Made by a program: the position numbers and the translations under genes
Notes under the pieces: model-generated
Database searches by the model: none
Told to the model about the DNA's origin: nothing
What the model saw: only the letters and a program-made list of their open reading frames with translations
Source of the DNA: a virus
Taxonomy: Duplodnaviria; Caudoviricetes
Reading direction: 5' to 3' (one strand)
IMG/VR virus record: IMGVR_UViG_3300025314_000006
DNA length: 64,000 bases
Shown here: piece by piece, positions 4,212-42,035 of the stretch
How positions within the stretch are numbered: position 1 is the stretch's first letter
Layout: the number at the start of each line of letters is the position of its first letter

Positions 4212-7200
4212 TTATTTTATTCTTGCTTGATAGAATCCTCCAATATCGTCAGCGAGAGGAGCATTACTTCCACTTGTAGACTCACCCCAATTTCCGACTA
4301 TGTTGAAACTCAGGGTCGCAACACACCACATAGGCTGAACTCGGCCACCAGAGCCATCTATAGACCAAGGTGAGTCATCATATGAAAACGAAATATTATT
4401 TATAATAACATCATAGTTGAACCAATCACCTAATTTTAAATGACTTACAGGTGGATATGTAAAAGAAAATCCTTTGCCAGAAGTATTTCTTGATGGTCTA
4501 GTAAGTTTGGATAAAAATTCCATTCTTGTTAAGAAATCTACTTTATCACCGGAAAAGAAAGCTGGCTGAAACATAAGATCTTTTTTCATTTCTTTTAATC
4601 TTTCTTTGGTTTCCTTAGTTTTTAAAGAAATGTCCCCAGAAGAATTAGTTTCTTCTCCACCTTTAATTAATTCTCTATAAATTTTTCCACCTTCATCTCC
4701 ATATTTACGATTTCCCACATTTGAAGAATTATCTTTTTGTTTAGCTTCTAAATTTGAAATTTCGGAATTCAATTCACTTATTTGAGATTTTAAAGTAGAA
4801 GTGTTTCCAACATCATCAGATGCTATAGCTAATAATTGAGCGTTATATTCAGATATTTGTTTCTTCTTATTTTTTATTTCTACTTCAATATTATCATTTG
4901 CTGTATTTATTCCATTTTCCGATTCAAAATGTTTACTAAAAGTTTCTGAATATGTTGTTGAATCTTCCCAATTAACACCAACATCAACAGTTTGAGAATA
5001 ATCAGTTAAAACAAAAAAGGATATGGAGCCTTCTCTATTTGAATTAGAATAAGTATAAATTGGCTCCGGTCTTCCAAGAAAATCTACCTTATTCCAATTT
5101 GCACTATCGCTATTTGAAAAAGACTTAACATATGGAGGAAAACTCATTGTATGATTAAGAGTAGAATCCCCATTTTGAATAGCGTAATTTTTTATTCTCA
5201 ATTCAAGGGTCCCAGCATCTTTACTTGGTTTATAGGGATTGGCTATTGTATATCTGGCATAAGCTTTTTTAGCATTTGGGTCAGCACTAATTAAAAATTT
5301 TTTAGTTCTTTGATTATAATTTTTAGATAAATCTATTCCTTCTGTTCCGGGAGCATTCTTTATTGTATTTATAATATGAGTAACGCCTCTTTCATGTTTA
5401 TTAAAATCAACAGCAATTGCATCTCCTGGAACTGTGTTTGACATCATAGAAATAGCCGTTCCTATTTCTCCATTTGTTGGTTTTAACAATTGTGTAACAG
5501 GAGATATTCCATCAGAATATTCCCCCGGAGATTGTAATCCTACATATGTTCCACCCTTAGCGCTAACTACTCCTGCTGGAGTTGAATTAGTAGATAATAC
5601 TTTTTCGTTTTTAAGCGTACTGTTAGATAATGATAACAGCTCTTTAAACCCTCCAGCGTTATGTCCATTTAATATACTGTATCCATCTAATAAATCATCA
5701 TATCTATTCCTGAAAACATTTTTCTGTAAATTATAAAGTTGAGCAGCATTGGTTATTTTCGCTAAAGGAATTCCAGAATCTGGTTTTGTTTCAAGCCCAT
5801 AAATTGGTTTTAAATTTTTGGTTGCGTCAAGTATTGTTCCTTTAAATTTCATAAGCTCTCTTATTGGAGCGCTCATAATTTCTAAATTAGATACACCTAC
5901 AAATGTGCTTGTTCCTCCCATCATTAAAGAAGTACCAAGACCATTAGAATTTCCATTTTTTGTTAATAAATTATGTCTAGTAGCATTTGCAATAGTTATT
6001 ATAGTATTTGGTCTATCAACATTTTTAGATAATAGAGAATTTCTTGTACCTACAGAATCAGATTCTAAGCTTAAATATTGAGGAACATTTGCTGATAATA
6101 AATCATTTCTTATACTTAATGAATTCTGATCTAAATCAATATTATTTACGACATTACTCGCCAATAATGCATTTCTTGAAATTAGTGCATCTCCATCTAA
6201 ATCAATAACTACAGGAACGTTTGCAGCAAGAAGAGCTCCTCTCGGAACCGCAGATAAAACATCTAAATCTGTATTTGACGGAACATTACTAGATAATAAT
6301 GTGTCTCTTAGAATTATTGAATTAGCGTCCAAATCAATATTGTTTGGTACATTGCTTGCCAATAATGAATCTCTTGGAATTACTGAATTTGCGTCTAAGT
6401 CAATATTATTTGGAACATTACTTGCTAATAGCGTGTTTCTTGGAGCAGTTGAGTTCGCATCTAAATCGATATTCACTGGAACGTTGTTTGCCAATAATGT
6501 ATTTCTCGGAACAGTTGAGTTTGCATCTAAATCTATATTCGCTGGAACGTTACTTGATAACAAATTTTCTCTTGCAGTTGTTGAGTTAGAATCTAAGTTA
6601 GTATTCGCTGGCACATTACTTGCTAATAATGAATCTCTTGGAACAGTTGAGCTTGCATCTAAATCTATATTCGCTGGAACGTTACTTGATAACAAATTTT
6701 CTCTCGTAGTCGTTGAGTTCGAATCTAAATTAACATTCGCTGTCACATTTGCTGAAAGTAATCCATCTCTTGTAATTGTTGAGTTCGCGTCTAAATTAAC
6801 TTTTGACGGCACATTTGATGATAGTAAACTTTCTCTTGTTACTGTCGACTTTGAATCTAAATTAATATTCGGTGCCACATTTGATGACAATAAACTATCT
6901 CTTGTAGCTGTTGAATTTGCGTCTAAATTAGCACTTATAGGAACATTTGACGACAACAAACTATCCCTTGAGATTGTTGAGTTTGCGTCTAAATCAATTT
7001 TTGATTGTACATTTGATAACAACAAGCTATCCCTTATGGCGGTTGAATTTGCATCTAAGTCAATTTTTTTAGATACATTACTCGATAATAAATTATCTCT
7101 TGTAGAAACTGCAGATAAATCAAGATTTATGTTTTTCTCTATATTTTTAAATTCCTGAGCTTCTCTGAACTGGGATGAATCTTTGTCGATATCAATTTTA

Positions 7201-7862
7201 CCTTCAATATTTTTAGATAAGGAAGCATTTCTTAATTTTAAAGACTCATTATCAATATTGATGTTGGACTTAATATTTGAGCCCAACATTTCTTCTCTTG
7301 TTGATATTGCTTTTGATTCTAAGTCTAAATTAGCCGGCACATTGCTCGATAATAAATTCTCTCTTACGCTAACAGATTTATCATCAAGATTTATCTTTTT
7401 CTCTACGTTATGAGAAATATTTGAATTTCTTGCATCTTTTGATTGAATATCTAAATTTGTTTCATGAGGAATGTTTTTTGATAATAGATTTTCTCTCACT
7501 GAGTCAGATAACTCTTCTAATCCAACAGAAGATTTAAGTAAACTATTTTTTGAAATTTGTGATTGTCTATAATTTTCTCCAGATATGTCTAAATCGATTT
7601 GTTTTTCTACATGTTTAGAAATCATTGTATTTCTGATGTTTGTAGAATTTTCATCAAGATTCGCTGTAAAAGTTGACTCGTTTTTTGCGAGCATTGTTTT
7701 TCTCGTTTCTGTATACAAAACATCATAAAGATTCTCCGGCCTCTTTACGTTTTTTGACAAAAGGGTTTTTCTAACTTCAGCAGAATATTGTCCAAAGAAG
7801 TGTTCTAACTTCTCACGAGCTTGTTGTTCTTCAAATGTTTCGTCATAATATTCTGTTGACAT
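4212..7862 (-). CDS. Baseplate/tail-tube-initiator-like protein with a long N-terminal 22-aa repeat region
   Basis: C-terminal FPPYVKSFSNSDSANWNKVDFLGRPEPIYTYSNSNREGSISF and VIINNISFSYDDSPW motifs typical of tube-initiator/hub proteins; 1216 aa. Confidence 0.6.
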   Translation of the reverse strand: MSTEYYDETFEEQQAREKLEHFFGQYSAEVRKTLLSKNVKRPENLYDVLYTETRKTMLAKNESTFTANLDENSTNIRNTMISKHVEKQIDLDISGENYRQSQISKNSLLKSSVGLEELSDSVRENLLSKNIPHETNLDIQSKDARNSNISHNVEKKINLDDKSVSVRENLLSSNVPANLDLESKAISTREEMLGSNIKSNINIDNESLKLRNASLSKNIEGKIDIDKDSSQFREAQEFKNIEKNINLDLSAVSTRDNLLSSNVSKKIDLDANSTAIRDSLLLSNVQSKIDLDANSTISRDSLLSSNVPISANLDANSTATRDSLLSSNVAPNINLDSKSTVTRESLLSSNVPSKVNLDANSTITRDGLLSANVTANVNLDSNSTTTRENLLSSNVPANIDLDASSTVPRDSLLASNVPANTNLDSNSTTARENLLSSNVPANIDLDANSTVPRNTLLANNVPVNIDLDANSTAPRNTLLASNVPNNIDLDANSVIPRDSLLASNVPNNIDLDANSIILRDTLLSSNVPSNTDLDVLSAVPRGALLAANVPVVIDLDGDALISRNALLASNVVNNIDLDQNSLSIRNDLLSANVPQYLSLESDSVGTRNSLLSKNVDRPNTIITIANATRHNLLTKNGNSNGLGTSLMMGGTSTFVGVSNLEIMSAPIRELMKFKGTILDATKNLKPIYGLETKPDSGIPLAKITNAAQLYNLQKNVFRNRYDDLLDGYSILNGHNAGGFKELLSLSNSTLKNEKVLSTNSTPAGVVSAKGGTYVGLQSPGEYSDGISPVTQLLKPTNGEIGTAISMMSNTVPGDAIAVDFNKHERGVTHIINTIKNAPGTEGIDLSKNYNQRTKKFLISADPNAKKAYARYTIANPYKPSKDAGTLELRIKNYAIQNGDSTLNHTMSFPPYVKSFSNSDSANWNKVDFLGRPEPIYTYSNSNREGSISFFVLTDYSQTVDVGVNWEDSTTYSETFSKHFESENGINTANDNIEVEIKNKKKQISEYNAQLLAIASDDVGNTSTLKSQISELNSEISNLEAKQKDNSSNVGNRKYGDEGGKIYRELIKGGEETNSSGDISLKTKETKERLKEMKKDLMFQPAFFSGDKVDFLTRMEFLSKLTRPSRNTSGKGFSFTYPPVSHLKLGDWFNYDVIINNISFSYDDSPWSIDGSGGRVQPMWCVATLSFNIVGNWGESTSGSNAPLADDIGGFYQARIK
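5955..7790 (-). repeat. Coding tandem repeat, 66 bp / 22 aa, about 23 clear plus several degenerate units
   Basis: Consensus VPxNIDLDxNSxxxRxxLLSxN read directly from the translation. Confidence 0.9.
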
Positions 7863-8083: not shown

Positions 8084-8287
8084 ATGGAAACTATAAAAAA
8101 ACAAAAAAGAGTTTTTAACTTTAATTTACCAGATGATCTAAGAGAGTATCTTAAATATAAAGCTAGTTTAAAAAGAACAACAATATCACAACACATTATT
8201 GATTTAATTGTTTCTGATATGGAAATTGAGAAACAAAAAATAACTAAAAATATTAATTGGGGAATAAACAATGAAAGTAAAAACTAA
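8084..8287 (+). CDS. Ribbon-helix-helix (CopG/Arc-like) DNA-binding protein
   Basis: KRVFNFNLPDDLREYLKYKASLKRTTISQHIIDLI has the strand-helix-helix pattern; overlaps the start of the next gene. Confidence 0.65.
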   Translation: METIKKQKRVFNFNLPDDLREYLKYKASLKRTTISQHIIDLIVSDMEIEKQKITKNINWGINNESKN

Positions 8288-9572
8288 ATTCACACTAAAT
8301 GAAGTATTAGACACTTTAAAAGAAAAGAAACTCAATAGAGACGAGTATTCGTTATTGTATAGTAGCTATGAAACACAGATTGGCAAAGATGGTTATCTGC
8401 AATTCAAATTAACAGAAAAAGATAATTGGAAAAATGTTCATACGCTCGTTAATCAATATTTTAATTCGGAAGAGCACGATAAAAAACATATAGAGCTAAT
8501 AGAAACTAAAATCGAAAAATGTTTAGTGACTCATCATGTTAATTTTTTTGAGAAAGAAAACAAGATAAATAATCATCCGGATAACTTATTGTGGTTAGGA
8601 CTGGATGAACATAGGATTTTACATGAGAAAATAATGTGTGAGGTAGTTGACAAAATGTGGAATCCCGAAAATACTGAATACTGTAATTTTGAAGTGCAGA
8701 GAGAAAAAATAAAATTAGCAGCATCTGAAAATGGTAGAAAGCATTTTGAAATATTGTGGCACGGAGAAAATAATGAAGAGTTTAGAGCAAAAATATTACC
8801 TATTCTAATCGAAAATGGTAAAAAAATAATGAATGAAAATTGGCATGGAGAAAATAGTGAAGTGTTTAGAGAAAAAATGAAATTAATCAAGAGTGAAAAC
8901 AATTATGAATTATGGCACGGAGAAAATAGTGAAGTGTTTAGAACTAAAATATTACCTACTCAAATTGAGAATGGGAAAAAAATAATGAATGAAAGATGGC
9001 ATGGAGAAAATAATGAAGAGTACAGAAAAAAAATGAAATTAATCCGTAGTGAAAATAATTATGAATTATGGCACGGAGAAAATAATAAAGAGTTTAGAAC
9101 AAAAATGAAACCATTTCAAATCGAATCTGGCAAAAAAGTAATGAAGGAATTATGGCATGGAGAAAACAACGAAGAATTCAGAGAAAAAATGTTAACTGTT
9201 GCTATAAATAATATTTCTGAACATAATGATACTTTTTGGAATGGTGAAGATAATAAATTAAGAAGAAAAGAGCAGAGCGAAAGAATAAAGGGAATATCAG
9301 AAAATTTTTGGTACGGAGAAAATAATGAAGAAAATCGTAAAAATCATGCAGAGAGATTGTCGAAAAGAAATGCTGACCCAGAACATAAACGAAAAGTAAT
9401 AGAAGGTAAGATATTTAAAATTTTCAAAAAAATATTAGAAGCAGGAGAAGAAATCTCAAATGAAACTTTCATTAAATACAAATTTAATGGAGCTCCATAC
9501 CCAATAACTGTTTTTGGTTCTATAGAAATTGCTATAGAAAAACTAAAAGATTATCATGAAAAGGTTAAATAA
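8271..9572 (+). CDS. HNH homing-endonuclease-like protein with WHGEN repeats
   Basis: HHVNFFEKENKINNHPDNLLWLGLDEHRILH is an HNH motif; inserted opposite to the flanking tail genes. Confidence 0.7.
   Translation: MKVKTKFTLNEVLDTLKEKKLNRDEYSLLYSSYETQIGKDGYLQFKLTEKDNWKNVHTLVNQYFNSEEHDKKHIELIETKIEKCLVTHHVNFFEKENKINNHPDNLLWLGLDEHRILHEKIMCEVVDKMWNPENTEYCNFEVQREKIKLAASENGRKHFEILWHGENNEEFRAKILPILIENGKKIMNENWHGENSEVFREKMKLIKSENNYELWHGENSEVFRTKILPTQIENGKKIMNERWHGENNEEYRKKMKLIRSENNYELWHGENNKEFRTKMKPFQIESGKKVMKELWHGENNEEFREKMLTVAINNISEHNDTFWNGEDNKLRRKEQSERIKGISENFWYGENNEENRKNHAERLSKRNADPEHKRKVIEGKIFKIFKKILEAGEEISNETFIKYKFNGAPYPITVFGSIEIAIEKLKDYHEKVK
8757..9340 (+). repeat. Coding repeat: eight W(H/N/Y)GE(N/D) units, mostly alternating 28 and 24 aa
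   Basis: Recurrent TGGCA(C/T)GGAGAAAA(T/C)A in the DNA; WHGENNEEFR-type motif in the protein. Confidence 0.9.
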
Positions 9573-20630: not shown

Positions 20631-21077
20631 ATGAACCATTCGAAACTAAAAGAAAAGCAAAAAGAAACTAAGAATACGCCATGGACAAAACTTGGGATAA
20701 AGGTAGATTTGTGTTCGTTTTTGACGAGGAAAGTGCTGGTTGAAAAGTTTTCTCCTCAAAAAGCTAAAGAATCAGAAATGAAAGAGTTTTTTATTTCGAA
20801 GATTGATGGGTGTGAATTATTTATTCATAATAACTATGAAAATTACGTTTTTTATATAAAAGAAACCAATGGAAACAAAGAAATTTTAATGGAAAAAAAT
20901 GAAAAAAACAAGACATTTTATATAAAACATGATGGCATATGGTCAGTTTTTGAGAGCCGATACATGCTCCAATATGATGAGATTCAGTCACTTACGCAAG
21001 GATACCTTTTAGACAGTTTAAATTCTAAAGGGTATAAAACAATTGGGTATTTTTTTCATAATTGGGGACCCTTTTAG
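20631..21077 (+). CDS. Array-associated protein A (unknown function); C-terminus encoded by repeat 1 and spacer 1
   Basis: 148 aa; ends LLDSLNSKGYKT-IGYFFHNWGPF with the TAG stop inside repeat 2; paralog of 24116..24550. Confidence 0.8.
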   Translation: MNHSKLKEKQKETKNTPWTKLGIKVDLCSFLTRKVLVEKFSPQKAKESEMKEFFISKIDGCELFIHNNYENYVFYIKETNGNKEILMEKNEKNKTFYIKHDGIWSVFESRYMLQYDEIQSLTQGYLLDSLNSKGYKTIGYFFHNWGPF

Positions 21078-21237
21078 ACAGTTTAAATTCTAAAGGGTAT
21101 AAAACGGATAAATGTGGATGGAATACATAAGGTTGACTTTTAGACAGTTTAAATTCTAAAGGGTATAAAACGGATAAATGTGGATGGAATACATAAGGTT
21201 GACTTTTAGACAGTTTAAATTCTAAAGGGTATAAAAC
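21006..21237 (+). CRISPR. CRISPR-like repeat-spacer array A (4 repeats, 3 spacers; no cas gene in window)
   Basis: 35-nt repeat CTTTTAGACAGTTTAAATTCTAAAGGGTATAAAAC at 21006, 21071, 21137, 21203. Spacers are 30, 31 and 31 nt; spacers 2 and 3 are identical. The architecture is certain, CRISPR function is not. Confidence 0.5.
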
Positions 21238-21244
21238 TTAAAAA

Positions 21245-22165
21245 TTACCTTTTACTACTATTTTTAGATTTATTTGCAGCATCCTTTTCTGCTTTATTCT
21301 GTTTTTCTATTTCTTCAGATATTCTATTTATTGTCCATCTTCTATCAACTGTAGTCATTTCATAAGCCTGATTTCTTGTTATTCCTTTACCATAATAATA
21401 AGCCAAAAAACATTCTTCATTCACGGTGTTTCTGTGAGTTTCTGGAAGAGATAAAAATTCTTCATCTATTTTAACAATATCTTTTAATTTATAATCACAA
21501 GACGGGCAAGTATGCATTATTGTCTCTTCAAATCCCGGTTCAACTTTATCCATGAATTCTCTTAAAGACTTAGAATCTTTAATTTTCATAGATTTTAGAT
21601 AATTGATAATATATTGTTTATCTGTTTTATCATTAATGGAAGTTATTTGAGTTAAGTATCTACTCATGAGTTGTTTATTTTTCATGAGATGTGATTTATA
21701 AACTCTTAATGGTTCAAAATTTATCTGAATTGGATTTTCTAAAAACAAACTGCTTGGAACTATGTACTCAAATTCTCCATTTTCATTTGGAGGAACATTT
21801 ATTTCCTTCGCTTCTATTTTGGAAATTTTAAATTGACCTTTTGATTTTGTTTCACATTCCGGACAAACAAACTCCATTTCAATTTCATCACCAAAAGTAA
21901 CAGACCTAAGAAATAATAAAATAGCATCCCTATCACACACTAAGAGTTCTTCATATTCCAAATCGGAATTTAGAATAACATTATTCATTAAAATTTTTAT
22001 AGCATTACCTCTTTGTGCTAAATATGGAGAAGACAATAAAATCTCATCATAACCAGTAAGAGCTCTTACTTGTATATGCGATGTTCCATCTTTGTAAAAA
22101 AGTCCCATCGATGGTAGATAAATCTCATCAAATGGGACTTTTAATAGTTCAGGTGTAGGTTTCAT
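21245..22165 (-). CDS. Baseplate hub assembly / tail assembly chaperone (T4 gp26-like)
   Basis: DEIYLPSMGLFY...VRALTGYDEILLSSP...DRDAILLFLR...CPEC, second CPSC near the C-terminus. Confidence 0.7.
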   Translation of the reverse strand: MKPTPELLKVPFDEIYLPSMGLFYKDGTSHIQVRALTGYDEILLSSPYLAQRGNAIKILMNNVILNSDLEYEELLVCDRDAILLFLRSVTFGDEIEMEFVCPECETKSKGQFKISKIEAKEINVPPNENGEFEYIVPSSLFLENPIQINFEPLRVYKSHLMKNKQLMSRYLTQITSINDKTDKQYIINYLKSMKIKDSKSLREFMDKVEPGFEETIMHTCPSCDYKLKDIVKIDEEFLSLPETHRNTVNEECFLAYYYGKGITRNQAYEMTTVDRRWTINRISEEIEKQNKAEKDAANKSKNSSKR

Positions 22166-22185
22166 AAATCTTAACTATTTGAAAA

Positions 22186-23076
22186 TCAGACCTTTGCATT
22201 TGGCCAGAAAAGCCGAGCTGTAATCGGAACCACATCTTCATAAACATGTCCGCAATTTTTACATTCAAATTCGTGATCCATATCAACTCCTGGTTCGATT
22301 ATTCCAATATATTCTCTTAAAAAATAACTATCAGAAATTGGCATACCAGCAATTGCATTACTAATATATATTTTATCTCTAACTCCATTCATTTCCATTA
22401 TTTGAAGAAGATATCTTTCAGTAAGTAAATTGGAAGTTCCAGTGCTCTTTTTTATTTTTTTCATAGATTCTACTTTCTTAGCAAGATAATCTTCATCTTT
22501 ACCAGTAAGAAGTCTGAATTTAACCACCATTTTCATCTTTGGAAGCTTAATTGAAAATTCTCCATTTTGGTCAGGCTCTCCTTCTAAAGTTTTATATTTC
22601 AAAGATGAAAGCTTAACAGAAGTTTTATATTGCTCAGTACAATCAGGACAAGTCATCTTAACTTCATAATCATCTCCATAGCCGGTAGAACGTAAAGATA
22701 ATAAAACAGCGTTCTTATCACCTGTAAGCATATCATTCGGACGTAGAGTCTTATCAATTATAGCATGCTCCAAAAGAACGTCTAACACTTTACCATTCTT
22801 AATTAAATCAGGACTTGTTAAAATATTTTCATCTTCTGCAGTCAAATACTTAACCTTTAATGTTTTTTGACCATTTGGATAGTATTTTCCTTGTGAAGGG
22901 AGTTCTATCTCGTCTGTAGGAACCATAAATTCCGTATCGATAAATTGTGCCGGTACTCCAGAACTGTCAGACATACTTTTAATATGTTCAGCTTGCTGAT
23001 TAGTATTATTAGTTGTTTGTGGTGCATCTACACCTTTTTTACCTCCAAGGGTAATTGAATCATTTTTTTCTTCCAT
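22186..23076 (-). CDS. Baseplate hub assembly / tail assembly chaperone (T4 gp26-like), tandem paralog
   Basis: DEIELPSQGKYY...VKYLTAEDENILTSPDL...GDKNAVLLSLR...CPDC...CKNCG. Confidence 0.75.
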   Translation of the reverse strand: MEEKNDSITLGGKKGVDAPQTTNNTNQQAEHIKSMSDSSGVPAQFIDTEFMVPTDEIELPSQGKYYPNGQKTLKVKYLTAEDENILTSPDLIKNGKVLDVLLEHAIIDKTLRPNDMLTGDKNAVLLSLRSTGYGDDYEVKMTCPDCTEQYKTSVKLSSLKYKTLEGEPDQNGEFSIKLPKMKMVVKFRLLTGKDEDYLAKKVESMKKIKKSTGTSNLLTERYLLQIMEMNGVRDKIYISNAIAGMPISDSYFLREYIGIIEPGVDMDHEFECKNCGHVYEDVVPITARLFWPNAKV

Positions 23077-23158
23077 TTTTGTATGTTTTTATAATAGATA
23101 GTCTATAGAAATTTTTTGGTTCTTTAAAATTAACTTACTCTTGTAAAAAAGTGAATAA

Positions 23159-23629
23159 TTGTTTAATTTTAATATTATGAACGATAAAAAATTTGGGATT
23201 ATAGAAATACGAGATGGAGAAACGGTAAGAACTTATGAAGGACTATTTGAAATTCCTAAAATAAAAGTTGATATTGTTGAATATCAAGGATTTTATATGC
23301 CAACAAATAGAGCATGGGAAGATATTGAATTAAATTTTTTTGATTATTGTGATATTAGAAATCTTATATGGATTGATGAATGGTTGATAGAGCAATGTGA
23401 TATAGCAACTGGACTAACGATGCGTGCTGTTGACTATAAAAAGGACATCATTTTTAAAATTGGTGAATACCAATGGAATTTGTACGGTTGTTTTCTTAGA
23501 GATGTTAGTGATAATTTATTGAAAGCATTGACAAGAAGAGTTTTAGTTGAAAGGATAGGTTATCCAACAATGCAAATTTCAAAAACAATAGTATTAAATA
23601 TTGATAGAGCTATGTTAGTAGATATTTAA
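23159..23629 (+). CDS. Divergent tail-tube (gp19-like) paralog
   Basis: WEDIELNFFD...DEWL...TG...DYKKDI...WNLYGCFL parallels the tube gene at 63669. Confidence 0.5.
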   Translation: MFNFNIMNDKKFGIIEIRDGETVRTYEGLFEIPKIKVDIVEYQGFYMPTNRAWEDIELNFFDYCDIRNLIWIDEWLIEQCDIATGLTMRAVDYKKDIIFKIGEYQWNLYGCFLRDVSDNLLKALTRRVLVERIGYPTMQISKTIVLNIDRAMLVDI

Positions 23630-24062
23630 ATCTTGACTTTGTTAATTCGTAATTCTTTTTTAAATCATCTTCCCAAACTCTTTCTAATTCATATCCGTTA
23701 TTTTTTGCTATCGCATTTTTTTTAATATCATTGTAAAATGTTCTTTTCTGCATTTGAGACATTTCTTTCAATTCTTTATCTTTTGCATGCCAAAAAATTC
23801 CATCCGTTTCAACAAGCATGTTTTTACTTGGTATATAAAAATCATATATTTTTCCACCAACAATCTTTTGAGTTTCGTATTCAATATTTAATTCTTCTAA
23901 TAAGCTTGCGAAGGATTTTTCCGGAGCTGTAGGATTTTTATCCATTTTTTTGGCCATACCCTCAATATAAGCTTGTTTTTGCTTTTGAGTTCTGGGACGA
24001 TTTAGAGCATGCCTTTTAATTCCTCTTAAAATAGATGCTGTAGTTTTTTTCTTCTTTGCCAT
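23610..24062 (-). CDS. DUF559/Vsr-like PD-(D/E)xK endonuclease
   Basis: PTAPEKSF...YDFYIPSKNMLVETDGIFWH...DIKKNAIA...GYELERVWE. Confidence 0.8.
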   Translation of the reverse strand: MAKKKKTTASILRGIKRHALNRPRTQKQKQAYIEGMAKKMDKNPTAPEKSFASLLEELNIEYETQKIVGGKIYDFYIPSKNMLVETDGIFWHAKDKELKEMSQMQKRTFYNDIKKNAIAKNNGYELERVWEDDLKKNYELTKSRFKYLLT

Positions 24063-24115
24063 CTGTAATAAATAGATAAAGAAACAATATGATAGGATTT
24101 TACGTTTAAACAGTT

Positions 24116-24550
24116 ATGAGTCAATCAAAATTAAGAGAAAATCGAGAAAAAGTTAGTGATACACCATGGACAAACCTTGGTATAAAATTGGACTTATGTT
24201 CATTTTTGACGAGGAAAGTATTGGTTGAAAAGTTTTCTCCTCAAAAATCGAAAGAAATAGAAATGCGGAATTTCTTTATTTCTAAGATTGATGGATGTGA
24301 GATATATTTAAACTCGAAGCATCCGGATTCCGTTTTTTACGTCAAAAATAAAGAGATTTTAGTGGAAAAATATGAAAAAAACAAGGCGTTTTACATAAAA
24401 TATACCGACTTTTGGTCAGTTTTTGAGAGCCGATACATGCTCCAACATAATGAGATTCAGTCATTTACACAGATTACCCTTGAAGAGGGTCTAAAATCTA
24501 ACGGTTATAAAACTTTCCAACAATTCGAACATACCCCTTATCAACCTTGA
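24116..24550 (+). CDS. Array-associated protein B (unknown function); C-terminus encoded by repeat 1 and spacer 1
   Basis: 144 aa; ends TLEEGLKSNGYKT-FQQFEHTPYQP with the TGA stop inside repeat 2; roughly 60% identical to protein A by eye. Confidence 0.8.
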   Translation: MSQSKLRENREKVSDTPWTNLGIKLDLCSFLTRKVLVEKFSPQKSKEIEMRNFFISKIDGCEIYLNSKHPDSVFYVKNKEILVEKYEKNKAFYIKYTDFWSVFESRYMLQHNEIQSFTQITLEEGLKSNGYKTFQQFEHTPYQP

Positions 24551-24780
24551 AGAGGGTCTAAAATCTAACGGTTATAAAACTCAACCCTATATAGAATGCT
24601 TAATTGCAATCCTTGAAGAGGGTCTAAAATCTAACGGTTATAAAACGTTCAAATTCACGCATGCGGAAAATGAACTGCCTTGAAGAGGGTCTAAAATCTA
24701 ACGGTTATAAAACCAGCATCAAGATATTCTTTCAGTGTGAACGTCCCTTGAAGAGGGTCTAAAATACAACGGTTATAAAC
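24478..24780 (+). CRISPR. CRISPR-like repeat-spacer array B (5 repeats, 4 unique spacers; no cas gene in window)
   Basis: 36-nt repeat CCTTGAAGAGGGTCTAAAATCTAACGGTTATAAAAC at 24478, 24545, 24611, 24678, plus a degenerate copy at 24746. Spacers are 31, 30, 31 and 32 nt. Confidence 0.6.
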
Positions 24781-25128
24781 TTAAAATAACTCATTTTTTG
24801 TTAAAGATAAAGTTTCAAATCTTTTTTCGCCGTAAACCCAATATTCTTTTATTCCATTTGGATAAATTATGGCTGGCTTAAAGTGACCTCTGTGAATTTT
24901 TCCATGAAAATAATATCCTTCAATGCCAGATGAATGTATTGTGGCTGGTTGATCATTGTCTCTGTGTAACTTTCCGTCTTTATCAAAAAAATTATCCAAA
25001 GTTCCGTCTTTTTCATAAAATATAACTCGTTTTTCTTTCCAAGTATCTTTATGGTACCAAATTTTAGTATGGCCATAATCTTCATAGGGTTGTCTAAAAA
25101 ATTCAGTTATGACAAATCGTTCCAACAT
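24781..25128 (-). CDS. Protein with LHR.D.PA (MORN-variant-like) repeats
   Basis: KLHRDNDQPATIHSSG...KIHRGHFKPAIIYPNGIKEYW. Confidence 0.6.
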   Translation of the reverse strand: MLERFVITEFFRQPYEDYGHTKIWYHKDTWKEKRVIFYEKDGTLDNFFDKDGKLHRDNDQPATIHSSGIEGYYFHGKIHRGHFKPAIIYPNGIKEYWVYGEKRFETLSLTKNELF

Positions 25129-26424: not shown

Positions 26425-28209
26425 ATGGACATACAGGAATTAGCACAAAAAATATCAATAGAAAATTTAGATAAATTAAATAAAAAAGAAGTTAAACAAT
26501 ACACTTTGCTTAATAAAGAATTTCATAAATCATTAAGAAAAATATTTATTGACTTAAATTGTTTTAAAAATCATGGTGCATATGATTATATTTATGTTAT
26601 AAATTCATTGAATTATTCTTTAGAAACATTTGAAGATTTACAGATTTTTATAAAAAAATTTTTAACAAACAAAAAAAGAGATGTGAGTTTCGAAAAGTTA
26701 ACATTAATTTCAAAAATTAATGAAAAAATTTTACCTCAAATAATTAAATTCACAAATAATTATCCATCTGATATTGTTAATGTTGTAAGATGTTCGATGA
26801 TAATTCAAAATATAAAAACATTTCCTACATGTTTGCATTGCGGAATTAAACCAGTATATTATTTTCAATCAAAGATAGGAATATACTGTTCTAAGGAATG
26901 TGCTTATAATTCTGATGGCAGGGCACAAAAAACGTTTGACACTAAACTAAAATTATATAACAATGGACATTATACTAATACAGAAAAAAGCAAAGTAACT
27001 ATTATAAATAAATATGGAGTTAATCACATATCTCATATACCTGGATTTGCAGATAAAGTTAAACAAACAAAATTAGAAAATTTTGGAGATGAAAATTACA
27101 ACAATAGAGAGCAGGCTAAAGAAACCTGTATTGAAAAATATGGAGTTGAAAATGTTTTACAATTAAAAGAAACGCAGAATAAAATAAATATAACCAAATT
27201 AAAAACATTATCATCATTTAAAATTATGAATATTTCAGAGATTGTTGATATTATTTTAAAAAATAAATTATATAATTTTTCTCAAAAAAAGTTCAATAAA
27301 TACAAAAAACAAAACCCGGAATTTAAATTTAATTTTTTGCGACATCGTAAAAACTTTATGTTTGGTCACAATAATTATGATATAGATATAATAAAATTAT
27401 TTTATTCCATATCTTATAAAATTCAAACTTTTGATGAAGTTAAGTTATTTATTAACACTTTTATTATTAACGGCAAAAATCATATTCATGAAAATGTTCT
27501 TAATTTTTTTACAGAAAAATTCCGTCTTGATTTAAAAGATAAAATTTTAGAAATGACCAAAAATTTTCCAAATAAAATATCTATGGTTGGCAGAAGTTTA
27601 TTAATTTCCAAAAACATAAAAGAGTTTCCTAAGTGTTTAACATGTGAAAAAAATCCAGTTTCTTGGTCAAATTCGTCAAAACTTGGAATATATTGTTCTA
27701 AAAAATGTGCGGACGCATCTTGTGTTAAGCATAATAAAAGTAAAATAACAAACATAGAAAGATATGGAGTAGAAAATGTCATGCATAATCAAAATATTTT
27801 CGAGAGAAGTCAGAAAAATGGCTTTAAAATGTATAAATACAAAGATACCTCTTTAAATTATCAAGGTAAATATGAATTATATTTTTTAGAACTAATGGAA
27901 AATGCAGGACTGTTAAATGAAATTAAAAGAGGTCCAAGTTTCAAATATAAATGGGAAAATAAAATTACTACATATTATTCTGATTTTTTGTTTAAAGAAA
28001 GAATAATTGAAATAAAGTCAGTATGGACATATGATAGTAAAGGGAAAGATATTAAAAAAGGACTGAAAAATGAAGCAAAATGGCAATCCGTAAGAGAGTG
28101 TGGTATGGAAATAGATATTATAATAGATGATGATAAAAAAATAAAAATCTTAGAATATGTTACAACAATTGCACAAACATTAAATAAAAATTCGGAAGTA
28201 AAATCGTAA
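26425..28209 (+). CDS. Putative homing endonuclease: Zn-finger and KYGV repeats plus C-terminal PD-(D/E)xK domain
   Basis: Duplicated FP.CL.C...YCSK.CA module; KETCIEKYGVEN repeats; YQGKYE...YYSDF...IIEIKSVWTY. Confidence 0.7.
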   Translation: MDIQELAQKISIENLDKLNKKEVKQYTLLNKEFHKSLRKIFIDLNCFKNHGAYDYIYVINSLNYSLETFEDLQIFIKKFLTNKKRDVSFEKLTLISKINEKILPQIIKFTNNYPSDIVNVVRCSMIIQNIKTFPTCLHCGIKPVYYFQSKIGIYCSKECAYNSDGRAQKTFDTKLKLYNNGHYTNTEKSKVTIINKYGVNHISHIPGFADKVKQTKLENFGDENYNNREQAKETCIEKYGVENVLQLKETQNKINITKLKTLSSFKIMNISEIVDIILKNKLYNFSQKKFNKYKKQNPEFKFNFLRHRKNFMFGHNNYDIDIIKLFYSISYKIQTFDEVKLFINTFIINGKNHIHENVLNFFTEKFRLDLKDKILEMTKNFPNKISMVGRSLLISKNIKEFPKCLTCEKNPVSWSNSSKLGIYCSKKCADASCVKHNKSKITNIERYGVENVMHNQNIFERSQKNGFKMYKYKDTSLNYQGKYELYFLELMENAGLLNEIKRGPSFKYKWENKITTYYSDFLFKERIIEIKSVWTYDSKGKDIKKGLKNEAKWQSVRECGMEIDIIIDDDKKIKILEYVTTIAQTLNKNSEVKS

Positions 28210-28213
28210 CATT

Positions 28214-30490
28214 TTAAAACACTTTTCTAAATTCAGCACTTCCATCAAAAGATAACCATCCTTTTTCTTTTTTAAATTTAGTCACATAAACACTATTATT
28301 CTTAAGCTTTGACTCAAGTTTTTTATACATATTATCCCACATAATAACTTTTTTAACTGTAGCCCCATCGGATAAGTGTAATACATACATTTTTCTTCCT
28401 GTTTTAGTTAATTTTTGTTCTACATTATTTAAACAGAAATAATAATAATTAATAGGATTATCAAAATTTGTTACCGGCTCTAACGCTACTCCATATTCTT
28501 CAACAAAAGCATCTCTGAGTTCATGCAGTTTTTTGAGTAAACCGAGATCAAGATTACAAACTTCTAAAAATTCTTTTTGCTTTATATCATCTGGAGTTTT
28601 ATTAAATTTCTTATAAACAGTAACAGAATCCATTCCAAAATTTCCAAATATATCTAATTGCATAACGTTTTTTACTTTCGCAGTTCTCCATGCCATAATT
28701 TCCTCTCTGGATGGTGACCAATCATCAAATAGTCCAGCTTTTAAACACGCTTCAAAACTGCCTTTATTAAATTTTTTAAAAGGTACCGAGAAAAACTCAT
28801 CCCTCGTTAACGTTCCTATATTTTTGGCTTTTAATTCTTTAAATGCAATATCTCCCATTCCATTTATTCCAGAAAATCCCATTGCAATTTTTTTATTTTC
28901 AATTGATGTCCATTCCCAATTAGATTTTCTTACAGGAGGGGCAATTTCAATCCCTTTAGACATAGCAGAAAGAAGTGCAGCTTGTAACCATTGTTTTTCT
29001 TTTTCTTTATCGCTATTACTTTTAGGGTGATTTAAAAGTGCTGTATAGAATTCAGTCGGATAATAGTGTTTTAAAAAAAGGGTTTGCATAGCTATGTAGC
29101 TATATGAAGTTGCATGTGATTTATTGAACGAATATCCCAAATATTTAATTAACCAGTCTTCTATTTTAGTTACTTCTTCTTCAGATAAACCCTTTGTTTT
29201 TGCTCCGTCTATGAATTTTTTCCACAAATCAATATAATTTTTATAATTTTTATTTTTTAATTCATCTTCTGTTAATATGTCTCCACGTAATTTTTTTGCA
29301 ATTATTTTACTAGCTGAGTCCATATATTTTCTTAAGTTATCACCATCTCCTTCATCCATTCCACCAATTTCCTTAGCAATAAACATTAGTTGTTCTTGAT
29401 AAATTAGTACACCATTAGTTTCTTCTAATAATGGAGCTAAAAGTTCATGTACATATGTTTTTTTTTCTGGATTGAATTTATTTTGTATAAATTCAATATG
29501 AGCTCCCATTCCAAGACTTCCAGGTCTATATAATGAATTTGCTGCTGTTAATTCTTCAAATGTTTCAATCTGAATTCCTTTTATTAAAGCATTCATTCCC
29601 TCAGATTCAAATTGAAAAATCCCTTGATTATTACCCATTCTAAGTTCTATAAAAAGATTTGGGTCTTCAAGATTCACATAATCAACTTGCTCCTGTATGT
29701 CTATTCCTTTGTTTTCTTTTACAAGTTTTATTGCTGATTTTATAACATTAAGAGTAGTTAAATTTAATCTGTCTAATTTTAAAATACCAAGAGAAGATAA
29801 ATCCTTTCCACTTCCAGATTCTTGATAACCTGAAACTATTTGACCTTTACAAATATTAACTGGCATATAATCCCAAACTGGTCCGGGCGTAATAACAATA
29901 CCAGCAGCATGCTTTCCTAAATTCCTTATTTGTCCTTGAAGTTTTAGAGTAATACTTAATATTTCTGCATTATCTGGAGAAGTTAACCAGTTTTTAACTC
30001 TTTCTGAGCACTGTGGGTCATTTGGCCATGTTTCGAACCATTCTTGTAAAGAAATATCCCAAGTCGGTTTCGTTGGCATTTCTCTTGTTACAGCAAAAAC
30101 ATCTGACTCAAACCCAGATTCCCCTCCGAGAGCTTTAACCACATCTTTTATACATCCTTTTTCATTAAAAGTGCCAAAAGTAATTACCGGTATAACTCTT
30201 TCTTTTCCATATTTATCATACAAAAATTGTAATGTTTTTGCATCTGAACCTGTTTCAAAATCGATATCGATATCAGGAATCGATTTCCTTTTTGTGTTTA
30301 AAAATCTTTCAAAATATAAACCAAAACGAAGAGGGTCTATTTTTGTTATATCAAGACAGTATGATAATAAACAACCAGATGCAGAATTATGAACTCCTAA
30401 ACTTTCAACATTGTAAGAGTGAGAATTTTCTACTGTTAAATCGTGAACTCTACCTTTATATTTAATTATATTTTTTGATTTTAATTTCAT
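28214..30490 (-). CDS. dnaE: DNA polymerase III alpha subunit, C-terminal half, with an N-terminal split-intein fragment
   Basis: ITKIDPLRFGLYFERFLN, PDIDIDF, GKHAAGIVI, GIFQFES, GVLIYQEQLM, YSFNKSH motifs. Confidence 0.95.
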   Translation of the reverse strand: MKLKSKNIIKYKGRVHDLTVENSHSYNVESLGVHNSASGCLLSYCLDITKIDPLRFGLYFERFLNTKRKSIPDIDIDFETGSDAKTLQFLYDKYGKERVIPVITFGTFNEKGCIKDVVKALGGESGFESDVFAVTREMPTKPTWDISLQEWFETWPNDPQCSERVKNWLTSPDNAEILSITLKLQGQIRNLGKHAAGIVITPGPVWDYMPVNICKGQIVSGYQESGSGKDLSSLGILKLDRLNLTTLNVIKSAIKLVKENKGIDIQEQVDYVNLEDPNLFIELRMGNNQGIFQFESEGMNALIKGIQIETFEELTAANSLYRPGSLGMGAHIEFIQNKFNPEKKTYVHELLAPLLEETNGVLIYQEQLMFIAKEIGGMDEGDGDNLRKYMDSASKIIAKKLRGDILTEDELKNKNYKNYIDLWKKFIDGAKTKGLSEEEVTKIEDWLIKYLGYSFNKSHATSYSYIAMQTLFLKHYYPTEFYTALLNHPKSNSDKEKEKQWLQAALLSAMSKGIEIAPPVRKSNWEWTSIENKKIAMGFSGINGMGDIAFKELKAKNIGTLTRDEFFSVPFKKFNKGSFEACLKAGLFDDWSPSREEIMAWRTAKVKNVMQLDIFGNFGMDSVTVYKKFNKTPDDIKQKEFLEVCNLDLGLLKKLHELRDAFVEEYGVALEPVTNFDNPINYYYFCLNNVEQKLTKTGRKMYVLHLSDGATVKKVIMWDNMYKKLESKLKNNSVYVTKFKKEKGWLSFDGSAEFRKVF
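30386..30490 (-). mobile_element. Split intein C-fragment (35 aa)
   Basis: MKLKSKNIIKYKGRVHDLTVENSHSYNVESLGVHN followed by Ser (+1); blocks F and G are recognisable. Confidence 0.9.
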
Positions 30491-30494
30491 ATTA

Positions 30495-31556
30495 TTATAA
30501 TGTTTTTACATATTCAAGTGTCATTTTGTGTAGGAAAATCATAAAATCAAAATTAAATCCTCTATCCAAACATTCTTGTTTCTTAAAATCGTTATTAATT
30601 TTACATTTATTATATATCCAAGTGGATTTTACTTCAATTATTTTATTTATTGAGATAATGTATATATCTGGAAAATATCTTCTTACAATGTTATCTATGT
30701 CTGTATAAAATATTTTTCCTATTTTATTTTGTATGTTTTTATTGCCAATTATCAAATCTTCTTCTTTAAATTCTTTTAATAAAATATCTAAAGCCTTATT
30801 TTCATACCCTTGCAGTTTTATAATTTTTCCACTTGGCATTATATATTCTTTAAATTTAAAGCTATTTTTTTGTGATTTTGAAAAAATTTTTTCATTTTGC
30901 ATAACACTATAAACTCCATATTTTTCAAAAACAGCATCCAAAATATTTTGTCTATAATTTTCATCTTGCCATTTTTCCAACATTTTATTACTCTGATTTT
31001 CTTTATAACCATCTTTTTTCCAAACTTCTATCATTTTTTTGCTTTGATTTTCTTTGAATTCTGGTCTATTTTTACATATTTTTTGTGCAACAGAAGTATT
31101 TTTTAACCAATTAAGAGATGATGTTACTTTTTTATTTATGCATTTATTACAAATTGGTTCGAGTGAAAAATAATCTCTTTTTATAATATTTCTACATGCT
31201 AATTCACTTTTTTTATTACAAGCTTCACAACAAAAAGTTATTTTCATTTTGGAACTTTTAAACGCTTCTATTTTCCATTCTCCTAAAGCAATAAAATCAC
31301 TTAATTCTATTCTGTTATTTATAGACTTTATATCATAGGCATTTAATAAATTTTCTAAATCTCTATTTTTAAATGGAATTTTACTTTCTTTTAATAATTT
31401 TCTAAATAATTTTAAGTTAATATTAAATTCTTTGGAAAATTTTAATATTTCATTTTTTGTTAAAAATCCATTTTTATTAATAATGACATTTAATATTTCT
31501 TTTTGTTCTTTTGTTATTTCTTTTTTCATGACTTTATATTTACTGTAAATAGTCAA
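30495..31556 (-). CDS. Free-standing putative homing endonuclease between the dnaE halves
   Basis: CxxC...CxxC; KYGVYSVMQ; LQGYE...RRYFPDIYI...IIEVKSTW PD-(D/E)xK domain. The true start may be the second Met (31529). Confidence 0.75.
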   Translation of the reverse strand: MTIYSKYKVMKKEITKEQKEILNVIINKNGFLTKNEILKFSKEFNINLKLFRKLLKESKIPFKNRDLENLLNAYDIKSINNRIELSDFIALGEWKIEAFKSSKMKITFCCEACNKKSELACRNIIKRDYFSLEPICNKCINKKVTSSLNWLKNTSVAQKICKNRPEFKENQSKKMIEVWKKDGYKENQSNKMLEKWQDENYRQNILDAVFEKYGVYSVMQNEKIFSKSQKNSFKFKEYIMPSGKIIKLQGYENKALDILLKEFKEEDLIIGNKNIQNKIGKIFYTDIDNIVRRYFPDIYIISINKIIEVKSTWIYNKCKINNDFKKQECLDRGFNFDFMIFLHKMTLEYVKTL

Positions 31557-31573
31557 AAAAAATCCTTATTGGA

Positions 31574-33091
31574 CTAAGTCGGTAAATAATCTACTTCCAT
31601 AATTTCATCTTCATTAGTTAAATCATTTGCTTTAACCCAACTTCTATTACTTGTTAGAAACTCATGGTCTAATGTGCATCTTATTTTTATTTTGTTTTCA
31701 AATTCTAATTCAACAATATCTTCTTCTATGTCATAAGACAAAACATCTATTACTGTTTGCTTATTTCCATAAGCATCTATCACTTCTTCTCCTATATCTA
31801 TTATTTCTATAGAAGAATATAATCCATTAGACATTTTTACTCTACTTCCTGGCAAAAAACATCCTCTTCCAGGTCCTGTGGCTATATCATTTTCCTTACA
31901 AAACTTAATTAATTCCCAAACAACCATAAAATAATCAGACACTTTTTTATCGTCAATTACTTTTAGTTCGTAATCAAGCCTGTCCTTATATTTTTGAATA
32001 ACTTCATCATCAATTTTTACTAAACCATTTTTTTTATAAATGTTTAATTTTTGTTTTAATTTTGCATGTGCAAGTTTTGTTATTATTTCCTTAGTTCCTG
32101 TTTCTTTAAAATACTCAATAACATCCGGTGTTGGCTCGTATTTTGGAAATTTCTCTACATCCGTTTCAAACTCAAAATTACATTTATCAGCAACTTTTAA
32201 AGTGTTATCTAAACATTCTTCAATAAATTTATCCGGATAATTATATCCAAATTCTTTATTCATTTTATAAAAATCATCTCTATTAGAATAATACAGATGT
32301 CGTGCTTGAAGTTTAAATGCTGTAGGGTCATCTACAGACTTATGTTGATTAATGGAAATAATCACATCCTGTAAACGATTATTTTCAGGACTCGAATAGT
32401 GAACATCACCTGTAAGTATTGGTGTTAATGAATATTTTTTAATCATTCTTAAAATAAAATGATTATATTTTTTTTGTTGAGGGATTTCATTAAATTGTAA
32501 TTCTGCCACAAAATTGTTTCCAAATTCTCGCATTAAAAGTTTTATTCTTTCTTCTGCTTCTTGTTCCTTGCCTTCTTCTATTAACCTTGCCATTTTACTG
32601 GCCATACAACTGCTCGTAATCAAAAGTCCGGACTTATTCTCAATAAGCCATTCTGTTGTTATTCTGCCCCTACGATAATACCCTTCTGTGAAAGAACGAT
32701 AAGTTAATTTATTTAAATTAACAAACCCTTCTTTATTCATTATAATAATTGATTGATGAGTATCTTTCCCCTCATAGGATTTTTCTTCATGTTTATCCAT
32801 TTCATCATTCAGATAAGCTTCCATTCCAATTATCGGCTTAATTCCAGCAGCTTTACATTTATTATAAAATTCAAATGTACCAGATGCATGACCGTGGTCA
32901 ATTAAAGTTATAGCAGGATGATGGTAATCCTTCGCTAAACTTACGTAATCGTCTATCTTCGCGGAACCATCGAGTAAGCTATACGAACTATGTAAATGCA
33001 AGTGTACCATAGGTTTTCTATGTAAACATCCATCATTTTTACAACTACATCTTTCCATTATATTTTGTTTTTTACAAATATAATAAAACAA
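31574..33091 (-). CDS. dnaE: DNA polymerase III alpha subunit, N-terminal half (PHP domain), with a C-terminal split-intein fragment
   Basis: HLHLHSSYSLLDGS, LIDHG, GIKPIIGMEAY, GDVHY motifs; the extein ends at GPGRG. Confidence 0.95.
   Translation of the reverse strand: MFYYICKKQNIMERCSCKNDGCLHRKPMVHLHLHSSYSLLDGSAKIDDYVSLAKDYHHPAITLIDHGHASGTFEFYNKCKAAGIKPIIGMEAYLNDEMDKHEEKSYEGKDTHQSIIIMNKEGFVNLNKLTYRSFTEGYYRRGRITTEWLIENKSGLLITSSCMASKMARLIEEGKEQEAEERIKLLMREFGNNFVAELQFNEIPQQKKYNHFILRMIKKYSLTPILTGDVHYSSPENNRLQDVIISINQHKSVDDPTAFKLQARHLYYSNRDDFYKMNKEFGYNYPDKFIEECLDNTLKVADKCNFEFETDVEKFPKYEPTPDVIEYFKETGTKEIITKLAHAKLKQKLNIYKKNGLVKIDDEVIQKYKDRLDYELKVIDDKKVSDYFMVVWELIKFCKENDIATGPGRGCFLPGSRVKMSNGLYSSIEIIDIGEEVIDAYGNKQTVIDVLSYDIEEDIVELEFENKIKIRCTLDHEFLTSNRSWVKANDLTNEDEIMEVDYLPT
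31577..31861 (-). mobile_element. Split intein N-fragment (95 aa)
   Basis: CFLPGSRVKM (block A) and IRCTLDHEFLT (block B TxxH); ends WVKANDLTNEDEI. Confidence 0.9.
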
Positions 33092-41636: not shown

Positions 41637-42035
41637 TTATTTTAACAATTCAGCTATATCTGAATGAATTTTTTCATTCACCATTGACTTCCATTCATCT
41701 GAGCCACTTTTAATGAAGTTTCTTATCTGAGTGGCGCTGATATTAGCAATAGTTTCAGGTGGCGTGTACATATTTGTTTCATATCCAACTGTTCTGCCCC
41801 AATTTACAGATTCTATATCTGGAATTATAATAACGGCAACATTTTGACCTTCATAAATTTTTTCCCATAAAAATTTAACCTGCTCCGCAGATAATGGGTT
41901 TTTTTCATCCGGAACAATATCTCTTATTGCTATTAACACCGGAATTCCTTTATTTAATTTTTGCTCGAACAGCCATTGGTGAGCGAGGGAGCAAGGCTGA
42001 AAACGTCCAATAAATAGAGCATTAGGTTTTTTCAT
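41637..42035 (-). CDS. Cytidylyltransferase/NMN-adenylyltransferase-like nucleotidyltransferase
   Basis: FIGRFQPxxxAH (the HxGH motif reads SLAH) and NISATQIR. Confidence 0.75.
   Translation of the reverse strand: MKKPNALFIGRFQPCSLAHQWLFEQKLNKGIPVLIAIRDIVPDEKNPLSAEQVKFLWEKIYEGQNVAVIIIPDIESVNWGRTVGYETNMYTPPETIANISATQIRNFIKSGSDEWKSMVNEKIHSDIAELLK

Follow-up and report, generated by a model that had tools for sequence, protein, structure and literature searches.

Array A, at positions 21006–21237 (+ strand) of the virus record IMGVR_UViG_3300025314_000006 (Duplodnaviria; Caudoviricetes), can be read with good confidence as a CRISPR mini-array which lies away from any cas gene, is fused to a phage gene, carries guides directed at the host and has gained a duplicated unit by recombination or slippage. 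The window, i.e., the whole stretch of DNA that was analysed, is 64,000 nt long and belongs to the 503-kb groundwater phage RIF_PHAGE_CU_29_17. In Table S1 of PMC7162821, this phage from Rifle sediment is entered with a genome of 503,412 bp, with CRISPR-Cas, Cas1 and Cas2 present, with cas14K as the interference gene (type V) and with Bacteroidetes as the best taxonomic signal.

The array is built of four exact copies of a 35-nt direct repeat, starting at 21006, 21071, 21137 and 21203, and no such copies are expected by chance (100 shuffles). The repeat falls within the 23–55 nt typical of CRISPR repeats and the spacers are near-constant in length (30, 31 and 31 nt, two of them identical). Repeat 1 (21006–21040), leader-proximal and in frame with the upstream gene, encodes LLDSLNSKGYKT and is followed by the 30-nt spacer 1 (A1, 21041–21070). 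Repeat 2 (21071–21105) holds the present stop codon of the gene, TAG at 21075–21077. Spacer 2 (A2, 21106–21136, 31 nt) copies the coding strand of bacterial corA at the motif WINVDGIH, and beyond repeat 3 (21137–21171) comes spacer 3 (21172–21202), its exact duplicate; all of these lie on the + strand. The distal repeat 4 (21203–21237, +) is followed by T and TAA, and this TAA is the stop which the gene would use, directly after ...GYKT, without spacers. As spacers 2 and 3 consist of the same 31 nt, the duplicated unit measures exactly 66 nt (spacer plus repeat). The four identical repeats and the identical second and third spacers had been noticed in a preliminary description made from the sequence alone, and the exact copies bear this out. 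The repeat hairpin proposed there was also recovered on folding, where a 9-bp hairpin with an 8-nt tail is the minimum free energy structure (−7.9 kcal/mol, z −2.5). A scan of both strands of the window with up to three mismatches gave no match to the repeat outside the array, a tracrRNA (trans-activating CRISPR RNA) anti-repeat not being otherwise sought, and no Rfam family was found at E ≤ 1 between 19000 and 26000.

The duplicated spacer is most likely a real polymorphism in the phage population, judging from two alleles seen across independent assemblies. In four ENA contigs from different samples (L012–L015), the order is repeat, spacer 1, repeat, spacer 2, repeat, i.e., a three-repeat allele which lacks spacer 3. 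The window and a JGI contig from an independent assembly (L016) carry the extra unit of spacer 2 and repeat and thus represent a four-repeat allele, and L017, an ENA scaffold derived from another sample, enters a second spacer 2 before it ends. The four contigs with the short form were assembled at k = 141, and since a 141-mer anchored in spacer 1 extends beyond the first spacer 2 unit, such assemblies discriminate the two alleles. This evidence bears directly on the alternative that the duplicate is artificial, the assembly (a manually curated genome) having counted one repeat unit twice. A short unit flanked by identical repeats is liable to such an error, and the Logan contigs (four runs), which break at every repeat and never span array A, are unsuited to copy counting. 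Nevertheless, the presence of the four-repeat form in the independent JGI assembly, the start of a second spacer 2 in the ENA scaffold, and the three-repeat form in four assemblies able to tell the forms apart make the artefact highly unlikely. The read-depth check suggested in the preliminary description points the same way in two Logan runs (X1 and X2), where the depth of the spacer 2 unitig is 1.7 and 2.0 times that of the spacer 1 unitig, a weak indication because contig depth is not copy number and these contigs break at the repeats. The earlier proposal of repeat-mediated recombination or slippage found support in the exact tandem spacer-repeat unit, absent from the four short alleles and present in the window, the JGI contig and the ENA scaffold. 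An exact tandem copy which is polymorphic is most likely the product expected of unequal recombination or slippage between identical repeats, two mechanisms that are not separable here. Duplicated spacers are commonplace in CRISPR arrays; in this one the duplication doubles the template for the guide against corA.

The preliminary description, correct as to the duplicate, missed the nature of the array, in that the duplicated spacer is a near-exact piece of a bacterial gene. The spacer search which it proposed was performed and gave a clear answer for spacer 2. When JGI metagenome contigs were scanned for exact matches to the first 22 nt of this spacer, three contigs were returned, none of them an array, and in all three the match lies in the WINVDGIH motif of a CorA Mg2+ transporter. 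One of these (L030) matches the spacer at 30/31 nt, and its CorA belongs to PF01544 at 5.7e-68. The contig is a fragment of a bacterial chromosome, encoding thioesterase, tetrapyrrole methylase, peptidase M28, thymidine kinase and Mur ligase besides CorA, which is 77–84% identical to the CorA of uncultured Bacteroidia metagenome-assembled genomes (MAGs). Two of these MAGs match the spacer at 29/31 (L032) and 28/31 (L124).

Array A is accompanied by sister cassettes of the same design. Cassette B (24116–24781, +) comprises a paralogue of the fused gene (P0002, 24116–24550) and an array at 24478–24781 with five 36-nt repeats, the last of them degenerate, and four unique spacers. The two gene products, P0001 of cassette A and P0002, share 65% protein identity and about 80% DNA identity. 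Two further cassettes are found on the same contig (L004 and L008) and one in related IMG/VR contigs (L001–L003); the paralogues P0006 and P0007 are present on CACVIJ010000001.1 (GCA_902731165.1). Every cassette has its own repeat variant, of which all copies in an array are identical. In the sister arrays the repeats are 36 nt long and the unique spacers, of 30–33 nt, number 4, 3, 3 and 3. The composition of the array spacers is foreign, with up to 53% G+C against 29% for the genome. Decay of the repeats toward the gene-distal end, the polarity typical of CRISPR arrays, was observed in array B and in two distant arrays (L116 and L117); array A shows no decay, its four repeats being identical across 35 nt.

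The spacers of the sister arrays likewise lead to Bacteroidia. A BLAST search was performed with positions 21000–24800, which contain arrays A and B and 3.3 kb of phage genes, against the five closest Bacteroidia genomes. Although spacers make up only 5.7% of this query, eight of the nine matches with E < 0.02 fell exactly on spacers: A2 twice, B3 three times (30/31, 29/31 and 27/31), and B1, B2 and B4 once each. All four spacers of array B match genes of a single Bacteroidia genome (G004), and their targets are RecJ (B1), an open reading frame (ORF) without Pfam match (B2), a class II aminoacyl-tRNA synthetase with HGTP anticodon domain (B3) and a SIMPL/DUF541 protein (B4). The four mismatches between B1 and this genome all occur at every third base, as synonymous drift would give. 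Spacers C1, C2 and E1 of the further arrays also match these Bacteroidia genomes; no match was found in the five for the spacers of array D. A spacer against a class II, likely glycyl, tRNA synthetase of the host was reported for this very phage (PMC7162821), and from the match of B3 this target has evidently been recovered here independently. Protospacers in other genetic entities, as expected for a CRISPR array, are thus found for A2, B1–B4, C1, C2 and E1. A check for self-targeting gave no spacer match in the window or in the fetched phage loci. Exact scans of IMG/VR for A1 and A2 returned nothing, and the INPHARED phage collection contains no DNA match to the locus, array B giving only chance-level matches of 28 nt.

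The gene to which array A is fused, P0001 (20631–21077, +), encodes 148 amino acids. Its ORF runs in frame through repeat 1 and spacer 1, stops inside repeat 2 and ends ...LLDSLNSKGYKT-IGYFFHNWGPF-stop. Residues 1–137 constitute the conserved protein, of which residues 126–137 are encoded by repeat 1, and the final 11 residues come from spacer 1 and the start of repeat 2. The gene is real, coding and under purifying selection, as the dN/dS of the gene body is 0.19–0.36 in all 15 pairwise comparisons among P0001 and five paralogues and orthologues. A profile search of 1.84 billion representatives revealed 466 clusters of this family at E ≤ 1e-3. The motif L-x-[DE]-x-L-[KN]-x-x-G-Y-K-T is kept at the amino acid level while the nucleotides drift, and most of the distant relatives inspected (25–45% identity) end in [LV]-E-x-x-L-K-x-x-G-[YF]-T-[PT]. 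Further copies of the motif are read through in 32 of 159 family proteins, in 31 of these 32 with a period of 22 aa, i.e., 66 nt.

An AlphaFold2 model of P0001, obtained from an alignment of 116 sequences, has a predicted local distance difference test (pLDDT) score of 86.6 and a predicted template modelling (pTM) score of 0.76; an earlier alignment of 16 sequences had given a poor model (pLDDT 50). Residues 121–137 exceed a pLDDT of 90, and the repeat-encoded residues 126–137 form in the model the end of the last helix and a short strand. This confident folding indicates that the repeat is also a structural part of the protein, which would explain why the amino acid motif is kept despite the drift in the 5′ half of the repeat. 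Searches with the protein gave no Pfam or PHROG match and searches with the model no related fold, the best E in a Foldseek search of the PDB being 0.33 and the best Z in a wide VIA-align search 4.1. Among AlphaFold DB clusters only uncharacterised proteins were matched, two of them significantly at 27–28% identity, and these two are probably relatives. In the long members of the family, Pfam shows no informative fusion partner.

These features of the protein invite the view that the cassettes are not CRISPR at all and diversify proteins instead, the repeats being recombination sites at which C-terminal tails are swapped. Being in frame, the repeat codes for a conserved and folded section of P0001; its motif survives nucleotide drift, and some homologues read through two to four units. 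It was found, however, that the spacer lengths vary (29–33 nt), so that most units are out of frame, and that the tails are unrelated in sequence and range from 0 to 60 residues. Moreover, the spacers copy bacterial genes almost exactly, on one strand or the other and without regard to frame; the arrays have CRISPR geometry, and Cas12f-like genes adjoin related repeats (see below). Tail swapping is, on this evidence, scarcely credible. The three alternative tails described earlier do read as stated: besides the current IGYFFHNWGPF, spacer 2 read in the gene frame would give DKCGWNT-stop, and ACT TAA stands after the last repeat. They are by-products all the same. Behind the same repeat, relatives have IGYFFHNWGPF, GITM, NNTILFQNEPF or read-through into a second repeat; three of them (L019, P0009 and P0010) have other spacers after the same repeat, and another (P0016) ends exactly at GYKT. 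In one allele of cassette B (P0014) only the terminal repeat is present, with no spacer. Since the tails differ this freely behind the same repeat, they track spacer content and not a conserved peptide; they arise as side products when spacers turn over at the repeat next to the gene, and are neither conserved nor designed alternatives.

Two observations on related DNA belong here. A related phage (L019, ENA contig k141_10519, 51.5 kb) carries a mosaic gene at the genomic position of cassette C, with a C-like 5′ part, a D-like middle, and a 3′ end with repeat of type A followed by a different spacer, which testifies to paralogous cassettes having recombined. A loose end was noticed at window position 21240 in runs X1 and X4, where after the last type A repeat one contig runs on into 255 nt of other DNA, which points to a type A array in another genomic context or strain within the same samples.

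How the array might work can be outlined from these results. A block just upstream of repeat 1 (20941–20995, +), which overlaps codons of P0001, is near-identical between cassettes A and B in the alignment, even at synonymous sites. It contains a sigma-70-like pair, TTGAGA-17-TATGAT, at 20950–20978, and cassette B has TTGAGA-17-CATAAT at the same place; the promoter scan as a whole was not enriched over shuffles. From the conserved sequence we infer that this block is the putative promoter and leader of the array. Array A would be transcribed in the direction of the fused gene, probably from a promoter inside the last 90 bp of that gene, and its transcript would be cut into guide RNAs for an RNA-guided protein of the phage. 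Of these guides, at least the one present in duplicate would be directed at the chromosomal corA (Mg2+ transporter) of the likely Bacteroidia host, and those from the sister arrays at further host genes, among them recJ and that of a class II tRNA synthetase. RNA-guided silencing or damage of host genes during infection would most likely be the purpose; silencing was proposed by Al-Shayeb et al. (2020) for the synthetase-targeting spacer of this phage (PMC7162821). As in every CRISPR array, spacer gain would take place at the repeat nearest the gene and duplicate that repeat, so that the residues after ...GYKT would be rewritten and the stop moved, with the ancestral stop staying behind the last repeat. 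As for the second copy of spacer 2, unequal recombination or replication slippage between identical repeats most likely produced it, and it segregates in the population.

The protein that would use these guides can be approached from two sides. The candidate effector put forward in PMC7162821 is the Cas12f/TnpB-like protein Cas14K, in which a catalytic residue is missing and for which silencing was proposed. A 405-aa protein (P0286) of the related phage genome IMGVR_UViG_3300025319_000008 (G001) closely matches the printed parts of the Cas14K1 sequence in that paper and, by eye, is without the RuvC-II glutamate. Just downstream of the stop codon of this Cas14K1 orthologue (G001, L127:187-2551), a 45-nt tandem repeat in two copies was observed. 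The second approach was a pattern scan of IMG/VR for the conserved end of the repeat, which yielded six more contigs from viruses, with repeats of 36 nt and spacers of 30 nt that lie outside ORFs. In five of these (L021–L023, L025 and L028), the array directly adjoins a Cas12f-like nuclease of 451–476 aa, recognized by Pfam Cas12f1-like_TNB, by PDB 8hr5 at 1.5e-87 and by Cas12f 9nzr at 2.5e-63; in the sixth (L027) there is just a remote relative of the nuclease, at a distance of several kb from the array. Outside the 11 nt imposed by the pattern, the Cas12f-linked and gene-fused repeats agree at 16/25 and 15/25 positions, values reached by 28 and 65 of 20,000 shuffles, respectively. As the five Cas12f-linked phage records lack P0001-family members, the gene fusion is not general to this repeat family. 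Upstream of one Cas12f-linked array, a non-coding region (L022:4170-4585) contains several repeat-like fragments (e.g., ...tataaaattacatg...), which mark it as a candidate region for the tracrRNA or anti-repeat of that system. The repeats are reminiscent of those of Cas13b (type VI-B), a likeness that is given no weight here; the sense orientation of A2 argues against pure RNA targeting.

Several results weigh against a guide-producing array served by a phage effector. No cas gene was found among the scanned ORFs of the window, and Cas1, Cas2 and Cas14K rest on PMC7162821; nor does the window contain a homologue of a Cas12f-like nuclease, so that array A lacks the adjacent RuvC nuclease of a type V-F locus. 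P0286 is flanked by an ISL3 transposase, has no adjoining array and lies about 70 kb from the cassette of its genome; for these reasons it looks like an ordinary TnpB, perhaps with its own omega RNA, and may not serve the arrays as effector. None of the four sister variants (z +0.5 to −0.2) preserves the hairpin of repeat A, which is attributable to the structural part the repeat also plays in the protein. Compared between the four cassettes of one genome, the repeat variants show up to 8 differences in 35 positions and have no common hairpin, and a single effector would thus depend on the conserved 3′ end alone. As to the spacers, a target of A1 was not found in IMG/VR, the window, the fetched loci or the five Bacteroidia genomes. 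There is no single strand rule, since A2 is in the sense of the corA mRNA and B1–B4 are antisense to their genes. The 5′ flanks of the protospacers of A2 and B1–B4 are AAT, TTG, TTA, TCT and TTG and give no clean protospacer adjacent motif; TTR is hinted at in three of these five, which come from relatives of the true host. No run registered as RNA was among the carriers listed.

The lack of a cas gene among the scanned ORFs would also suit an array which acts as a decoy or as a parasite of host Cas proteins, with repeats that mimic those of the host and either load its Cas proteins with guides of the phage's choosing or jam them in the manner of RNA anti-CRISPRs (Racr), so that the phage would require no effector of its own. 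Racr elements are virus-carried repeat mimics of this kind (PMC10651486), and it is stated in PMC7162821 that phages without interference genes may use host Cas proteins. If so, the repeat should have a counterpart in the host. The five genomes closest to the target yielded no array that has this repeat end, and a search there for host CRISPR loci by way of Cas1 gave one small contig, without an array. Among 401 sampled Bacteroidia genomes, matches to the repeat were no commoner than those to the reversed control. In addition, the phage is reported to have its own Cas1, Cas2 and type V protein (PMC7162821), and spacers that copy host genes suit guides better than decoys. Taken together, we regard this alternative as unlikely.

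A more far-reaching version of the gene-fused CRISPR array, which we offer tentatively and hold to be possible rather than probable, is that the P0001-family gene came first. Its conserved 3′ end would then be a natural integration site for the Cas1–Cas2 of the phage, the gene would supply leader, promoter and first repeat, and the protein would be an array-associated factor. Each new locus of a paralogue would give rise to an array with a repeat variant peculiar to it, and the P0001 protein might bind or process its own array transcript or recruit the integrase. If this were true, a CRISPR repeat would be under simultaneous protein and RNA constraint.

The surroundings of the cassettes are those of a large tailed phage. 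Pfam identifies in the window a gp23-type major capsid protein, a prohead protease, a tail sheath, T4-type baseplate proteins, a holin and a split DnaE, eight tRNA genes are present, and the nearest capsid proteins come from uncultured phages of 484–595 kb. Between cassettes A and B lie two paralogous T4_baseplate (PF12322) genes with zinc ribbons (21245–22165 and 22186–23076), and a gene for a Vsr/DUF559-like endonuclease (23610–24062, −) stands directly upstream of cassette B. The DnaE gene (28214–33091, −) is split into a part with the PHP domain and the start of a Hint/intein domain (31574–33091) and a part with the NTPase, finger and HhH regions (28214–30490), with a DUF7487 protein (30495–31556) between the two ORFs; this looks like an intein or homing-endonuclease insertion. 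DUF7487 and/or tandem 69-nt (23-aa) repeats ending ...KYG occur at 26425–28209, 30495–31556, 42032–42883, 60017–61312 and 61677–63533, and these proteins probably form a mobile endonuclease-like gene family scattered in the structural region. A 1216-aa ORF (4212–7862, −) contains at least 13 tandem 66-nt (22-aa) repeats at 6042–7097, whose period equals that of the array while the sequences are unrelated, and a 433-aa ORF (8271–9572, +) contains 156-nt repeats at 8753–9220; no Pfam match was obtained for either ORF.

That this phage has CRISPR arrays, and that one spacer is directed against a host tRNA synthetase, is already published (PMC7162821). The compact arrays of huge phages described there concern the same genome and agree with ours in the short arrays, the tRNA synthetase spacer and the predicted Bacteroidetes host; the mode of action proposed there is likewise silencing, not cleavage. 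The consulted parts of that paper do not mention arrays which start inside a conserved gene, several dispersed cassettes with their own repeat variants, or corA, recJ or other targets. In the literature searched, as far as its accessible parts go, we found no description of an array fused to a conserved folded gene or of its recurrence across a large family, nor of dispersed cassettes with distinct repeats or of such a breadth of host-gene targets (corA, recJ). A phage-borne guide would here be directed against the host housekeeping gene corA, and at least three arrays of the set carry host-gene spacers; the single published target, the tRNA synthetase, is thereby extended to what would be a programme of host-gene targeting.

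Guides of type V systems carry the repeat-derived handle at the 3′ end of the repeat. Type V-F (Cas12f/Cas14) loci likewise have 36-nt repeats and 30-nt spacers, and the conserved part of the repeat is its 3′ end as in the present family; array A differs from them in having no effector beside it and a TTR flank in only three of five protospacers, and the Cas12f-linked arrays, unlike array A, are not fused to a P0001-family gene. Racr elements and other virus mini-arrays are also short repeat-spacer elements that lie in a virus away from cas genes (PMC10651486). Array A departs from that description in that its spacers copy chromosomal genes of the host, that it is part of a coding gene and that no host array with its repeat was found.

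Ectopic integration of spacers, which seeds new arrays at repeat-like sites, is background known from laboratory work in E. coli. The present cassettes are similar in that the array of each paralogue is built from copies of its own 3′ end and that P0014 has a terminal repeat without spacer, the picture expected of an integrase that targets a repeat-like gene end. What sets them apart from the laboratory case is a stable, family-wide arrangement across 466 clusters. The fusion of gene and array may offer a natural case in which to study the birth of arrays, the definition of a leader, and the use of one sequence as codons and, putatively, as guide-RNA handle.

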